Positions 632 through 8,097 are shown, numbered from the stretch's first letter. The stretch is DNA of 64,000 bases from Candidatus Thorarchaeota archaeon (GCA_016933575.1 JAFGAR010000028.1:128001-192000); one strand, 5' to 3'. Notes: generated by a model from the letters alone, not told the origin. Made by a program: numbers and translations.

Positions 632-749
632 CGATACATAGAAACGATAAACCATTTCTAAAGCAACTAACAGTGAAAATCATAGGTAAATTGAAAGGAC
701 TAATTGTTGGGTGTTCGCAGATAAGTCATAAATCGGTGGCCATCTACCA

Positions 750-1124
750 TTGGAAAACTTTGATTCTGAATATGATCGTTTCTATAGACTAGCAGCAGAA
801 GATATGGAAGCAGTACTGCGAGAGATAGTCACTTCTCGAGAACCTTGGTACGGTATTGCTCATATTGTAGAAGGCGATGACCAAGATTTCAATTAAAGAG
901 CCAGAACAATCATCAAGGAGAGATTGAAATACATCATTGAGTCAATTCGAACCTCAAATCATCCATATCTTATCATCATAAGTATAATTCATCACGAGTG
1001 GATATTCCATGATGAGAGCATAATCACAGCGATAGCAGAGGCCATCAGACATTCAGAAAATCCAGCATGGCTCTATTATGAAATCAGTAAACATACACAT
1101 TTGATATATCGAAACAAAATATGA
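750..1124 (+). pseudogene. Probable interrupted helical-repeat protein gene (in-frame TAA at 894-896)
   Basis: The frame reads LENFDSEYDRFYRLAAEDMEAVLREIVTSREPWYGIAHIVEGDDQDFN*RARTIIKERLKYIIESIRTSNHPY...AIAEAIRHSENPAW. A similar I-x-x-S-x-x-P-aromatic motif recurs on both sides of the stop. Confidence 0.45.
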
Positions 1125-1192: not shown

Positions 1193-1207
1193 TCGAATTC
1201 AATATGG

Positions 1208-2515
1208 CTATGGAAATATCCGACTCACAGTTCTAGGGAATGGGATACAATCCCTGATGTGTTCAAGATTCAACATCCAAGTAATTAATCGGTCCATTCC
1301 AACCCCAAATCCTGAATGCTGAACACTGCCATATCTACGGATATCAATATACCATTTGTACTTCTCAGGATCATCACCAATTCTATTTAGATTATCAATG
1401 ATTAACTGAGCATCAGTTTCACGTTCGCTTCCGCCAATTACTTCACCAAATCCGCGAGGACCAAGAAGATCACTGTTCTTGTATGTTCTAGGATCTTCAG
1501 GATTGTCCTTCATATAGAATGATTTGATCTCCTTGGGATAGTATTCGACAAATAGAAAGTTATCACTCTCTTTTGTAAGGAATTCCTCAGCTTCGCTACG
1601 AATATCATCGCCCCATTTAATTTCAATACCACCCTTCTGACAGGTCTCTATAGCTTCCGAATAGGTCATTCGGTCAAACGGTGGATTTACTGCAAGCAAA
1701 CGTTTTGGATCGACTTTGAGCTCTGCTAGTTCGTACTTTCTGTTATTCGCCACAGAATGGCACATGTAACTTACAAGTTCCTCTTGTCGTTTCAGATTGC
1801 ATTCATGGTCGCACCATGCTTCTTCAACCTCCAGATGCCAGAATTCAGTGAGATGTTTTCTGGTTCTGGATTTTTCAGCTCGAAATGATGGAGCTAGTAT
1901 GAAGACTTTCTCCATGGCGAATAGCTGTGGTTCGAGATGCATTTGACTGGTCTGAGTCAAGTAGACTTTCTTTCCAAAATACTCCACCTCAAAGAGCTCC
2001 GCACCTTCTTCACCCATTGTTGACACGAACATTGGAGAAGTTGTTTCATAGAATCCCTGGCCGCGAAGATATTCACGAGCTGAATTGAACACTTCATCCC
2101 TGACCTTCAAGATATTGGTGAGCGATCTGGAACGCATCCATAAGTGGCGATTATCATTCAGGAATTCGATGCTCTGGTCTTCAGTGATCGGGAAATCTTC
2201 TGCGAAATGAAGCACATTAAAGTCCTCGACCTGTACTTCATAACCACCTTCCGCTCGCTCGTCAGCCTTCACTATACCAGCGATTGTAACAAGGCTTTCT
2301 ATTAGCATCTTCTCTGCATCAGCATATTGCTCGTCCCTGACTGCAGCCTTTTTAATGACCGTTTGGACAACACCTGAAGGATCTCTAAGGAGAACGAAGA
2401 CCATCTTCTTCTGTTTGCGAATTCGATGGACCCATCCTCGAAGATGGACCTTCTGTCCATCGTATCCACCTTCAAGTACGTCACGTACGTGAATATAGCT
2501 CACTTTAATCACCAC
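1208..2515 (-). CDS. asnS: Asparagine--tRNA ligase
   Basis: N-terminal OB fold (LRGWVHRIR), class IIb motif 2 'PSFRAEKSRTRKHLTEFWHLE' typical of AsnRS, motif 3 'HSGFGVGMDR', C-terminal 'IPFPR'. Confidence 0.92.
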   Translation of the reverse strand: MVIKVSYIHVRDVLEGGYDGQKVHLRGWVHRIRKQKKMVFVLLRDPSGVVQTVIKKAAVRDEQYADAEKMLIESLVTIAGIVKADERAEGGYEVQVEDFNVLHFAEDFPITEDQSIEFLNDNRHLWMRSRSLTNILKVRDEVFNSAREYLRGQGFYETTSPMFVSTMGEEGAELFEVEYFGKKVYLTQTSQMHLEPQLFAMEKVFILAPSFRAEKSRTRKHLTEFWHLEVEEAWCDHECNLKRQEELVSYMCHSVANNRKYELAELKVDPKRLLAVNPPFDRMTYSEAIETCQKGGIEIKWGDDIRSEAEEFLTKESDNFLFVEYYPKEIKSFYMKDNPEDPRTYKNSDLLGPRGFGEVIGGSERETDAQLIIDNLNRIGDDPEKYKWYIDIRRYGSVQHSGFGVGMDRLITWMLNLEHIRDCIPFPRTVSRIFP

Positions 2516-4967: not shown

Positions 4968-5804
4968 CTATAGATGATTCTCAATCCACTGGAATATATC
5001 ACCGAGAAACTCATCCCCTCCAGGTTCTTCAAATGGCTCGTGATACAAACCAGGGTAGAATTTCCAAGTCTTGTCCTCAGAATTAATGTTATCAAAGAAT
5101 TCTTTGTTTTTGTCAGGAATTAGAATCATATCATCTCCAGTCTGTTGAACCAACACGGGCAGTTTTATTCGATTTGCAGATTCAAACAGTCTCTTACTTG
5201 CTTTGAGTCCTTCAATTGCATACCGAGGCGTCGCTTTGTCAAATCTTAGTGGATCTTCTTTGTTTCTTTGAACAACATCCTGATTTCTTGAGATGAGATC
5301 TATCTTCAATCCATTATCAATGTAGGTCTTGACATTGATTTTTGATAGCAAGGTGCCAATCATTCTAGTTGCCTTCCCAACTTCAAGTCTCTCAGACACT
5401 GCTGGGCATGGCATAATTAAACCATCAATTGGTGCATTTGGATATTCAAGAATATAGCATCCAATGAAGACACCACCAAGAGAATGTCCATACATGAACA
5501 TCTTTTCATCAGGATGAGCCTCTTTGATTTCGTCAACTAGAACTTTCATATCTTCAAGATGCTCATTGAAACTCTCAATATGGCCCTTGCGACCCGGGTA
5601 TGTACCAAATCCCCTCATATCCGGAGCATAGAATAGAAATCCTTTCGATGCAAATTGCTCTGCAACAAAAGAAAGCAAGCCACTATGTGAACCAAGGCCA
5701 TGAAATCCTAGAACTACAGCACGTGGTTCTCCTTCGGGTTTCCACACCCTAAGCAGCATGATTGTCCCATCATATCCTGAATAATGCTCTTCTTCACCTG
5801 ACAT
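4968..5804 (-). CDS. Lysophospholipase / monoacylglycerol lipase-like alpha/beta hydrolase
   Basis: HGLGSH, DMRGFG, nucleophile elbow GHSLGG, catalytic D (GDD) and H (LYHE). Confidence 0.88.
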   Translation of the reverse strand: MSGEEEHYSGYDGTIMLLRVWKPEGEPRAVVLGFHGLGSHSGLLSFVAEQFASKGFLFYAPDMRGFGTYPGRKGHIESFNEHLEDMKVLVDEIKEAHPDEKMFMYGHSLGGVFIGCYILEYPNAPIDGLIMPCPAVSERLEVGKATRMIGTLLSKINVKTYIDNGLKIDLISRNQDVVQRNKEDPLRFDKATPRYAIEGLKASKRLFESANRIKLPVLVQQTGDDMILIPDKNKEFFDNINSEDKTWKFYPGLYHEPFEEPGGDEFLGDIFQWIENHL

Positions 5805-5868
5805 TTATTCCACACAGCACACACAGAATATGCAAAATTACCTATTTGTCTTCCGAAGTTCCCAAATA

Positions 5869-6687
5869 TCAACTGGTGAGTAATGCAAATTGCATTCGAG
5901 GGTAATCAATAATAATTTCAAGACTCTTTAAGAAATCAAATCCAATGATTCCATTCTCAATGAGATTACCCTTTGGTGAAACTCTACTGAGATCTATGAC
6001 TGTTGCAGTAGATTTTTCCAGTCTTTGAGAACCAATAGATATGGAATCAAGCGAAGCTATTTTTAGTTCAACATCACCACCAAGACCTCGAGCAATTCCA
6101 TTGATTGGTTCTGCACTGGCACCAATATTTGTGGCAAAATCTGGTGTAAGCACTGTATTTCCTGCCCCAGTATCAAGAACAAAATCAAAAGGTCCACATC
6201 CGTTAACTACGACAGGAACTCCAATCAAATGTGAGTCTTTGATATACTCAAAGGGACTCCAGATAATGGAATCAGTTGAATCATTATCAGAGAAGCGATC
6301 CTTATCGATGCAAAGTTTCTTCCGTGAGTAATTCAAAGACAATATGCAGTGTTTAAGCGTTGAATGACCAATCACACCATCGCGCTTTCCAGCTCCTTGT
6401 AACATAGCATTAAGATCCAAGACATAGACTTCATCTTCATTGAATGTGAGAGGACCTATACCAATTGTAGCTATCGCATATTCAGTAGGTATCCCGCTTC
6501 CGAGACCTCTTGCATCGGATTGTTCCCTCTTATAGGTAGATATCCCCAATTTTTCAGCTAATGACTTGGTGAGAGTTGTTGTAGAAGCTCCTGTATCAAA
6601 AACAAATTGAAAAGGACCATATCCATTGACATGGACTGGTATTTTCACAAGGCGAGTACCAGATTCAATTTCAAACTCAATATCCAT
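5869..6687 (-). CDS. Two-domain retropepsin-like aspartyl protease
   Basis: Two homologous halves, each with a catalytic D-T-G (FVFDTGAS, FVLDTGAG) and a G-x-I-G motif; likely start MDIEF at 6687. Confidence 0.85.
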   Translation of the reverse strand: MDIEFEIESGTRLVKIPVHVNGYGPFQFVFDTGASTTTLTKSLAEKLGISTYKREQSDARGLGSGIPTEYAIATIGIGPLTFNEDEVYVLDLNAMLQGAGKRDGVIGHSTLKHCILSLNYSRKKLCIDKDRFSDNDSTDSIIWSPFEYIKDSHLIGVPVVVNGCGPFDFVLDTGAGNTVLTPDFATNIGASAEPINGIARGLGGDVELKIASLDSISIGSQRLEKSTATVIDLSRVSPKGNLIENGIIGFDFLKSLEIIIDYPRMQFALLTS

Positions 6688-6697
6688 AGTATCGCCT

Positions 6698-7498
6698 TCA
6701 GAAATCAGGTTTTCGGCCATACACGTAGGCACTATAGGCTCCGTACATACTTGAACCAGCCTTTCCAGCTATTTTGACATCTACGAATCCAACATCTTTC
6801 ATATGTTGAAGATATTCATCATCAAGTATAGCTCCACCAATACAACCTGTATATGTTACAACTTCGTCTTGGATTTCTTTTGACAATGGTCGTGATAGAA
6901 CGATATCAGAAACCATCATTCTACCACCGGCTCGCAAAACTCTGAAAGCCTCGTGAAACACTTTACTCTTATCTGGAGCCAAATTGATGACACAATTACT
7001 GATAACAACATCAACAGAACTATCATCTAGAGGGAGATCCTCGATATCTCCATAACGAAACTCTACGTTTTCGATGCCGAGCTCTTCAGCATTCTTCTTA
7101 GCCTTGTTTATCATTGCAGGAGTCATATCAACACCAATTACTCTCCCGGTAGTACCCACTTTACTACTAGCGACGAACATATCGAGACCTGCGCCACTAC
7201 CTAAATCAAGTACGATCTCCCCCTCCTTTAGGCTTGCAAGCGCTACAGGATTTCCACACCCTGCAAAAGACTCTGTTGTTGAAATCGGCATTCCATGAGT
7301 ATCATAGCCAAGTGCTTGAGCAAGATCAATGCGCGTGACCTTCCTAGAGGAGGACTCACCGCAGCAACTTGATGATCTCTTAATATCAGGTTCGCAGCCA
7401 CAACTTACATCGAGGTCTGCAACCTGAGTGTACGCTTTCCGAACTTCTTCCTTAATTTCATCAGGTTTCATATCACTAATTTTTTTCATGTCTGTCAT
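6698..7498 (-). CDS. arsM: Arsenite S-adenosylmethionine methyltransferase
   Basis: N-terminal CC, 'GCGNP', SAM motif 'VLDLGSGAG', 'VISNCVINL', 'GCIGGA': the conserved ArsM cysteines. Confidence 0.92.
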   Translation of the reverse strand: MTDMKKISDMKPDEIKEEVRKAYTQVADLDVSCGCEPDIKRSSSCCGESSSRKVTRIDLAQALGYDTHGMPISTTESFAGCGNPVALASLKEGEIVLDLGSGAGLDMFVASSKVGTTGRVIGVDMTPAMINKAKKNAEELGIENVEFRYGDIEDLPLDDSSVDVVISNCVINLAPDKSKVFHEAFRVLRAGGRMMVSDIVLSRPLSKEIQDEVVTYTGCIGGAILDDEYLQHMKDVGFVDVKIAGKAGSSMYGAYSAYVYGRKPDF

Positions 7499-7638
7499 AC
7501 AACCACCGTCTTCGAGGGATTCCTATTCGATAGATCTTCGACGCAATAGGATGCTGATTCATATGAATTATCAGTTCTCTTACAATCGTTAAGAAATCGT
7601 CTTGATTTGCAGGATTTCATTTTCTTATCATTGTCCAT
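7495..7638 (-). CDS. Unannotated 47-aa Cys-containing peptide upstream of arsM
   Basis: Manual translation MDNDKKMKSCKSRRFLNDCKRTDNSYESASYCVEDLSNRNPSKTVVV*. GGTGA RBS upstream; its TGA overlaps the arsM ATG (ATGA). Confidence 0.55.
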   Translation of the reverse strand: MDNDKKMKSCKSRRFLNDCKRTDNSYESASYCVEDLSNRNPSKTVVV

Positions 7639-7651
7639 TCAATCACCAACC

Positions 7652-7715
7652 ATATTGGACATCCAATATTGGACATCCGATATATAAATTTAAATGTATC
7701 GGACATCCAATACAT
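7652..7715. promoter_or_regulatory. Three palindromic operator boxes flanking a bidirectional TATA element
   Basis: ATATTGGACATCCAATAT (7652-7669, perfect 8-2-8), ATATTGGACATCCGATAT (7666-7683) and ATGTATCGGACATCCAATACAT (7694-7715); TATATAAATTTAAA at 7681-7694. Confidence 0.8.
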
Positions 7716-7719
7716 CAAT

Positions 7720-8097
7720 ATGAGAGGTCCCGCTAAATCAGAACCGTGCTGTCCACCAGATTGCTGTGATATGAGAGGACTTCTAACCTTCCAAATTCTC
7801 TGGGAGCTTGAACAAGAGGAATTAAATGGGCAGCAGATTGCGGATAAAATTGCCAAGAGAAGAGGTATCAAACCGACGCCAGGCACAATTTATCCCGCGC
7901 TGAAAGAGTTGAAAGAGGGAGGGCTTATCAGCGGCAGAAAAGAAGGAAGGCAGATTTTGTACAGTCTAACATCTGAAGGTAAAAAAGGATTGGAGCAAGC
8001 TTCGGTTTATTTTCATCAAGCCTTTGGTGATATTGCAGAAGATGTCAAGGTTAAGGTCAAGGTCATCGTAATTGATGATGATGATTGTAGATGTTGA
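7720..8097 (+). CDS. PadR-family winged-helix transcriptional regulator with Cys-rich termini
   Basis: 'MRGLLTFQILWEL...NGQQI...PTPGTIYPALKEL...Y.LT..G' PadR signature; N-terminal CCPPDCC and C-terminal CRC; likely leaderless start ATG 7720. Confidence 0.85.
   Translation: MRGPAKSEPCCPPDCCDMRGLLTFQILWELEQEELNGQQIADKIAKRRGIKPTPGTIYPALKELKEGGLISGRKEGRQILYSLTSEGKKGLEQASVYFHQAFGDIAEDVKVKVKVIVIDDDDCRC

Follow-up and report, generated by a model that had tools for sequence, protein, structure and literature searches.

A 64,000-nucleotide stretch of a Candidatus Thorarchaeota archaeon genome (GCA_016933575.1, JAFGAR010000028.1:128001-192000; hereafter "the window") encodes a small, cysteine-armed protein of the PadR family, which we call Cys-PadR and which is very probably the dedicated, autoregulated transcription factor of the divergently transcribed arsenite methyltransferase gene arsM. 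Genomic context and analogy with known sensors suggest that Cys-PadR is likely to be an autoregulated dimeric repressor of arsM whose signal is a trivalent arsenical, bound by thiols near the N-terminus. The regulator gene (padR) occupies positions 7720-8097 on the plus strand, stop codon included; its proposed target arsM, coding for an arsenite S-adenosylmethionine methyltransferase, occupies 6698-7498 on the minus strand. An earlier note on this DNA had already described the two genes as divergent, which they are, but had placed the start of the regulator at 7495, a position that falls in a separate open reading frame (ORF) of 47 codons on the minus strand (7495-7638).

The identity of the divergent gene is well defined. 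It matches the NCBIfam arsenite methyltransferase model NF008823 with 303 bits, against a curated cut-off of 263, and in an alignment with the solved ArsM structures 5EVJ and 4FR0 it keeps their three As(III)-binding cysteines, which lie in the segments GCGNP, SNCVINL and GCIGGA. A scan with one genome per species yielded 80 Cys-PadR loci, in Thorarchaeota, Hermodarchaeota, Bathyarchaeota, Methanomethylicota, Hydrothermarchaeales and Methanosarcinaceae, and arsM was immediately upstream on the opposite strand in 77 of them, spanning at least five archaeal phylum-level groups. In a sample of 151 genomes of Asgard archaea, the window's own phylum, arsM was present in 84 and Cys-PadR in 42, the two being adjacent and divergent in 38 of these 42; the co-occurrence with arsM that the earlier note had proposed looking for was thus found. 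Even a high-GC relative with 48% identity (P0126), recovered by an exhaustive search of representatives, has arsM and the same operator boxes beside it. When the neighbouring ORFs were clustered, padR and arsM alone were common to all groups, while the protease, hydrolase and TBP genes around the pair proved to be local synteny of close relatives. The pairwise identity matrices of padR and arsM are correlated (r = 0.70; Mantel test, 0 of 999), which fits inheritance of the two genes as a unit, although common ancestry alone would also produce a correlation. At the loci where the regulator occurs without arsM, the neighbours belong to the DinB family, to V-ATPase subunit E and to an RNase H-like family, and have no common theme. 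One such locus (L027) carries the Cys-PadR gene at 5177-5605 on the minus strand with a DinB-family gene as its divergent neighbour; G037:C47 is another of these rare loci. As a separate observation, one in-frame stop triplet (TAA, TAG or TGA) interrupts each of several Asgard arsM matches (G064:C140, G088:C566, G070:C141, G047:C154, G038:C1 and G096:C25); frameshifting, recoding of the codon or a match extended too far could each account for it.

The gap between padR and arsM contains a predicted operator. Three 18-bp palindromes of the form ATATTGG-N4-CCAATAT, to which no strand is assigned, lie around an AT-rich, TATA-like core, two on the arsM side and one on the padR side. Box 1 (ATATTGGACATCCAATAT, 7652-7669) is a perfect palindrome and shares 4 bp with box 2 (ATATTGGACATCCGATAT, 7666-7683). 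The core (ATATATAAATTTAAAT, 7680-7695), read from the sequence, has boxes 2 and 3 on either side and a putative role as promoter; box 3 (GTATCGGACATCCAATAC, 7696-7713) ends 6 bp ahead of the padR ATG. Related loci from every phylum have these boxes too, with one or two on the arsM side and, in most loci whose start is correctly placed, one about 21-22 bp ahead of the predicted padR start, and between them lies the AT-rich TATATA(C/A)ATTTAAA core (TATATACATTTAAA). Using a weight matrix derived solely from other loci, the window being excluded (consensus ATATTGGACGTCCAATAT), we scanned the whole 3.47-Mb genome. The three boxes of the window took ranks 1-3, at 28.3 (box 1), 26.8 (box 2) and 25.0 bits (box 3), and the next match scored 14.6. 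Genome-wide, the strict pattern TATYGG-N4-CCRATA has three matches, all of them in the padR-arsM gap; about two scattered matches would be expected by chance. Since no other site above 14.6 bits was found in this genome, which is 85.5% complete, there is no sign of a wider regulon and the regulon is taken to be a single locus. The half-sites are about 11 bp apart, a spacing that would suit a winged-helix dimer, and the predicted operator, an inverted repeat in what would be the regulator's own promoter, is of a kind characteristic of the PadR family.

The ORF running from ATG 7720 to TGA 8097 encodes 125 residues, and its assignment to the PadR family, first made in the earlier note from a signature, is supported by a match to Pfam PadR (PF03551) over residues 26-92 with 43.5 bits (cut-off 27; E = 3.1e-11). 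Matches to other families of metal sensors stay below threshold. Against the ArsR model HTH_5 there was no match at E <= 0.01, and the ArsR model NF033788 gave 28.7 bits, under its cut-off of 55, which places the protein outside ArsR/SmtB; Penicillinase_R (PF03965; CopY/BlaI) reached 19.6 bits, below the cut-off of 22.6, and the C-terminus has a CxC alone, not the CxCx4CxC of the CopY type. An AlphaFold2 model built on 102 sequences (mean predicted local distance difference test score, pLDDT, 81) consists of a winged helix-turn-helix followed by one long C-terminal helix, with helices at residues 20-32, 37-48, 54-66 and 85-108 and strands at 70-75 and 78-83. Its best Foldseek matches, at E of about 1e-5, are the one-domain PadR-like proteins RosR, TA0346, Cth-833, Rv3488 and LmrR, and a sequence comparison with solved structures likewise puts TA0346 of Thermoplasma, several PadR proteins, Rv3488 and RosR first. 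TA0346 of Thermoplasma acidophilum (3ELK), Rv3488 (5ZHC) and Halobacterium salinarum RosR (6QFD) have the same one-domain PadR-like fold and dimer architecture; they differ from the window's regulator in that they are 25-30% identical to it, lack the CC-x3-CC tail and have no link to arsM. A homodimer model of the regulator gave an ipSAE of 0.64, against 0.00 for the best of three controls (among proteins of solved structure, 20 of 30 one-chain pairs and 1 of 23 single chains attain this ipSAE mark), with contact agreement between runs of at least 93% and a partner pLDDT of at least 79. In this model helix 1 and the C-terminal helix form the predicted interface, residues 12-25 packing against residues 90-116. 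As solved PadR dimers exist, the pass may reflect likeness only.

The cysteines of the regulator form two clusters, both of which fall in the disordered tails of the model (residues 1-19 and 118-125), and the winged-helix core has none. The N-terminal cluster, CCPPDCC (C10-C11-P-P-D-C15-C16; codons 7747-7767, plus strand), lies directly ahead of the predicted helix 1 in a flexible segment with a pLDDT of 48-59 and provides two vicinal thiol pairs proposed to bind a metalloid. The C-terminal cluster, CRC (C123-R-C125; 8086-8094, plus strand), forms the last coding residues. Both had been noted earlier, and their fate in homologues differs. A word-indexed search found 626 homologues, and among the 120 matches listed, in which the motif was read, CCPPDCC is present in nearly all. 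In essentially all of the 80 genome loci the double vicinal motif is kept, either as CC-x3-CC or, in Bathyarchaeota and their relatives, as CC-x5-8-CC, and the N-terminal cysteines are near-invariant in homologues down to about 48% identity, so that the lack of conservation which the earlier note had named as a ground for rejecting its reading was not observed. At the C-terminus the pattern varies by lineage: a terminal CxC or CxxC is found in 44 of the 80 loci, mostly Thorarchaeota; one or two cysteines lie within helix 4 in 17 (ACxYFC type, Bathyarchaeota), where they would fall near residues 12-25 at the modelled interface; 12 have one or two other cysteines in the tail; and eight, with the arsM pairing kept, have none (three of the 17 helix-4 loci also have the terminal pair and are counted twice, so the counts exceed 80). 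The earlier note had assumed a three-cysteine site drawing on both clusters. Its N-terminal part stands, and CRC turns out to be lineage-specific; because the C-terminal cysteines vary in this way, we place the sensor core in the N-terminal motif and regard CRC as an auxiliary ligand at most. More loosely related are short PadR proteins (P0123-P0244) that have one or two cysteines right before helix 1 (C-DMRG or CC-DMRG) and, in many cases, additional C-terminal cysteines. Among the plasmids of PLSDB no member with CCPPDCC was found, only PadR proteins of about 30% identity, chrA-linked ones for example.

The N-terminal motif is easily missed, since the public gene call for this very regulator (P0002) is 108 residues long and begins at Met18, which removes the cysteines. 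Roughly one public call in ten begins there; such calls of 105-108 residues include P0002, P0076, P0083, P0088-P0090, P0101 and P0105. Annotation pipelines that choose Met18 therefore overlook CCPPDCC. We assign the start to ATG 7720 because the closest upstream methionine lies nine residues ahead of the first cysteine in 42 of 59 loci. A TTG at 7669, which would give 142 residues, was considered as a start and dropped: it would put the operator inside the coding sequence, and a distance of nine residues from Met to Cys is conserved. Over 70 related loci both TGT and TGC are used at each cysteine of the motif and all four proline codons at the prolines, with the residues unchanged. Such synonymous change with fixed residues indicates that the N-terminal tail is coding and under purifying selection.

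The earlier note had suggested that a PadR protein apparently replaces ArsR here, having seen no ArsR in the window. No ArsR-family (HTH_5) match was found anywhere on the window's contig (C156), so the replacement holds at the arsM locus; it does not hold for the genome, which has 15 ArsR-family matches and retains an acr3-arsR operon. This lies on contig C140 (6387-7597; locus L081, 3295-4676), where acr3 (TIGR00832, 286 bits) is followed by an arsR whose 127-residue product has the classic CxC As(III) motif, EQCQCD. The organism thus appears to keep two circuits, ArsR with an efflux pump and PadR with the methyltransferase. Five other Asgard genomes carry arsM but no Cys-PadR, and in these no ArsR-family match lay within 7 kb of arsM. 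One of the five, G139, from another Asgard family, has a different PadR gene (locus L083, G139:C18:80300-82600; 683-1078, minus strand) head to head with arsM (1193-2143, plus strand). It resembles the window's regulator in having a terminal tail with vicinal Cys-Cys-Pro and an intergenic gap with palindromes; it differs in being only 27% identical, in carrying its cysteines at the C-terminus (SCCP), and in having an operator of another type, two GGAATATTCC-like palindromes. The two distant arsM-linked PadR lineages have little in common beyond a flexible tail that bears vicinal Cys-Cys-Pro. ArsR proteins acquired As(III) sites several times and at different positions, and the recurrence of Cys-Cys-Pro in two distant PadR proteins matches this known pattern of repeated evolution.

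The analysis shows that the protein belongs to the PadR family, that its N-terminal motif is conserved, that its gene is linked to arsM and that the operator is unique in the genome; that it represses, which ligand it binds and how binding acts on the DNA-bound form we infer, and the scheme we favor is as follows. A one-domain PadR homodimer would repress the divergent arsM operon together with its own gene. Without ligand, dimers would occupy the three 18-bp palindromes, and the AT-rich core would serve as TATA element for both divergent promoters. The padR transcript is predicted to start inside box 3, which would make it nearly leaderless, and the arsM transcript inside boxes 1-2, so that a bound repressor would cover both predicted starts and exclude RNA polymerase from both promoters; blocked recruitment of RNA polymerase is the usual mode of action of archaeal repressors. 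ArsR proteins detect trivalent metalloids through pairs of adjacent cysteines. By analogy, As(III), possibly methylarsenite (MAs(III)) or Sb(III), would bind C10/C11 and C15/C16, in the flexible segment just ahead of helix 1 at the dimer interface, with C123/C125 perhaps contributing ligands in this lineage. Binding would re-set the two recognition helices, the protein would leave the DNA and arsM would be switched on. The 47-codon ORF, if real, would be the first gene of the repressed transcript.

Several points weigh against this scheme. The regulator occurs without arsM in 3 of the 80 loci, and the genome being 85.5% complete, additional operator sites could be missing from it. The C-terminal cysteines, once counted as part of a three-cysteine site, are not conserved, and model confidence is low for the cysteine tail itself. 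The genome already has a canonical As(III)-type ArsR with acr3, and a second As(III) sensor in the same cell needs a reason. It is the neighbouring gene alone that points to an arsenical, and with four cysteines in a span of seven residues, a site for Zn, Cu(I), Cd or an Fe-S cluster, or a set of disulfides, would be just as plausible. In one variant of the scheme the CC-x3-CC tail would form two S2 sites selective for the ArsM product methylarsenite rather than for arsenite, with As(III) efflux left to the separate ArsR-Acr3 circuit. We hold this to be rather doubtful. Were it true, PadR-ArsM would form a product- or competitor-sensing loop for making, or coping with, antibiotic-like MAs(III) in anoxic sediments, and Cys-PadR would be a natural scaffold for MAs(III)-selective sensors.

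A different kind of explanation makes the cysteine cluster a redox switch, working through a disulfide, an Fe-S cluster or a Zn-thiolate, and ties arsM to thiol or oxygen status instead of arsenic. CC-x3-CC does supply four closely spaced thiols, ArsM catalysis needs reduced cysteines, and one arsM-less locus joins the regulator to a gene of the DinB family, which is tied to thiol transferases. Moreover, the archaeal PadR-like protein RosR, a near structural relative, is described as controlling oxidative-stress genes (PMC3443676, PMC4287449). A regulon of one locus with arsM as its sole conserved target would, however, be unusual for a redox regulator, and the host lineages are strict anaerobes of sediments. 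With the second, unrelated PadR beside arsM, Cys-PadR has just the vicinal CC in common, a feature typical of As(III)/MAs(III) sites, and altogether we find a redox switch unlikely. A soft metal other than arsenic (Cd, Hg, Cu(I), Zn or Sb) might also be the signal, with the ArsM-family neighbour acting mainly on Sb, Se or Te. ArsM enzymes can methylate other metalloids, CopY-type repressors have CxC motifs for Cu(I)/Zn, and Rv3488 binds cadmium. The same Rv3488, a PadR-family protein and close structural match, has been crystallised with a bound ligand (PDB 5ZI8), and the weak, sub-threshold Penicillinase_R match of the regulator points in the same direction. Yet the neighbour lies above the curated cut-off for arsenite methyltransferases and keeps the As(III)-binding cysteine triad, and the clustering of neighbouring ORFs found no metal transporter or chaperone conserved beside the regulator, which makes another metal quite improbable.

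Lastly, the cysteines could be structural or incidental, and arsM could be under constitutive control or under that of an unrelated small molecule bound elsewhere in the protein, as in LmrR or PadR proper. Most characterised PadR proteins are described as binding organic ligands at the dimer interface (PMC5728393; LmrR structures), and the tail is disordered in the AlphaFold2 model. That four cysteines stay invariant under synonymous drift within a disordered tail argues instead for a functional ligand site, and a one-domain PadR protein of 125 residues has little other pocket; we judge an incidental role for the cysteines very improbable.

The proposed arsenical-responsive repressor has counterparts in several winged-helix families. 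ArsR/SmtB As(III) sensors belong to another of these, and ArsR models stay below threshold here, but they too are dimeric repressors in which a flexible tail, N- or C-terminal, carries a vicinal cysteine pair (forming an S3 As(III) site in ArsR). In Corynebacterium glutamicum ArsR1 the site consists of Cys15-Cys16 and Cys55 of the other subunit, and in Acidithiobacillus ferrooxidans ArsR of Cys95-96-102. Another example is AdMarR_ars of Achromobacter deleyi As-55, in which Cys36/Cys37 act with a distant cysteine (Cys157) and As(III) or Sb(III) frees its own and the target promoter (bioRxiv 10.1101/2021.08.12.456183). It resembles the proposed role of Cys-PadR as a non-ArsR winged-helix arsenic repressor with vicinal cysteines, and differs in its MarR fold, its bacterial host and its target, arsV. 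Closest in family is PadRars of Azospirillum halopraeferens Au 4, published as a PadR-family sensor of trivalent metalloids (Zhang, Wu, Tang, Chen, Rosen and Zhao 2022, Environ Microbiol 24:5139, PMID 35880613), with CCTTGA-N11-TCAAGG given as its operator (PMC12817078). With these two published, winged-helix repressors outside the ArsR family that carry vicinal cysteines are a known kind, the PadR scaffold included. Going by its description, PadRars is, like the window's regulator, a PadR-family repressor at arsenic genes with vicinal cysteine pairs; it is bacterial, whereas ours is archaeal, and its operator as given contrasts with ATATTGG-N4-CCAATAT. PadRars reportedly regulates the co-directional padR-arsV-arsW operon of which it is part, as against a divergent arsM, and its cysteine pairs are said to be Cys56/57 and Cys133/134, positions other than that of the N-terminal CC-x3-CC. 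What sets the present clade apart is its archaeal host, the divergent arsM target, the operator and the N-terminal CC-x3-CC site. A literature search found no paper tying PadR to arsM in archaea, although the searches returned mostly false matches, and a paper on arsenic in cold-seep Asgard archaea does not discuss regulators.

To our knowledge, nothing has been reported on how arsM is turned on in archaea. In sediments and paddy soils the mobility and toxicity of arsenic are controlled by its methylation in anaerobes, and Cys-PadR is a concrete candidate regulator, with a defined operator and cysteine motif, in Asgard archaea, Bathyarchaeota, Methanomethylicota and Methanosarcinaceae. As a proposed arsenic sensor it would broaden the rule that such sensors have evolved time and again through vicinal cysteines placed on different winged-helix scaffolds, twice in arsM-adjacent PadR proteins, and it may yield a compact part for biosensors.

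The 47-codon ORF lies between the boxes and arsM, has a ribosome-binding site (GGTGAT) in front, encodes three cysteines and overlaps the arsM start with its stop (ATGA). ORFs of 39-47 codons, mostly with NPxKxV-V/I ends, occupy the same position in about 20 close Thorarchaeota loci and in none of the more distant loci. Judged by these sequence features, the ORF is probably the real first gene of the arsM operon. Downstream, a gene for a tandem-domain aspartyl protease, identified by profile search (4968-6732, minus strand), starts inside or just past the arsM stop, and a gene for an S33 alpha/beta hydrolase comes next on the same strand. Synteny of these two with arsM is limited to 21-24 close relatives, and both may be read-through passengers of the arsM transcript.

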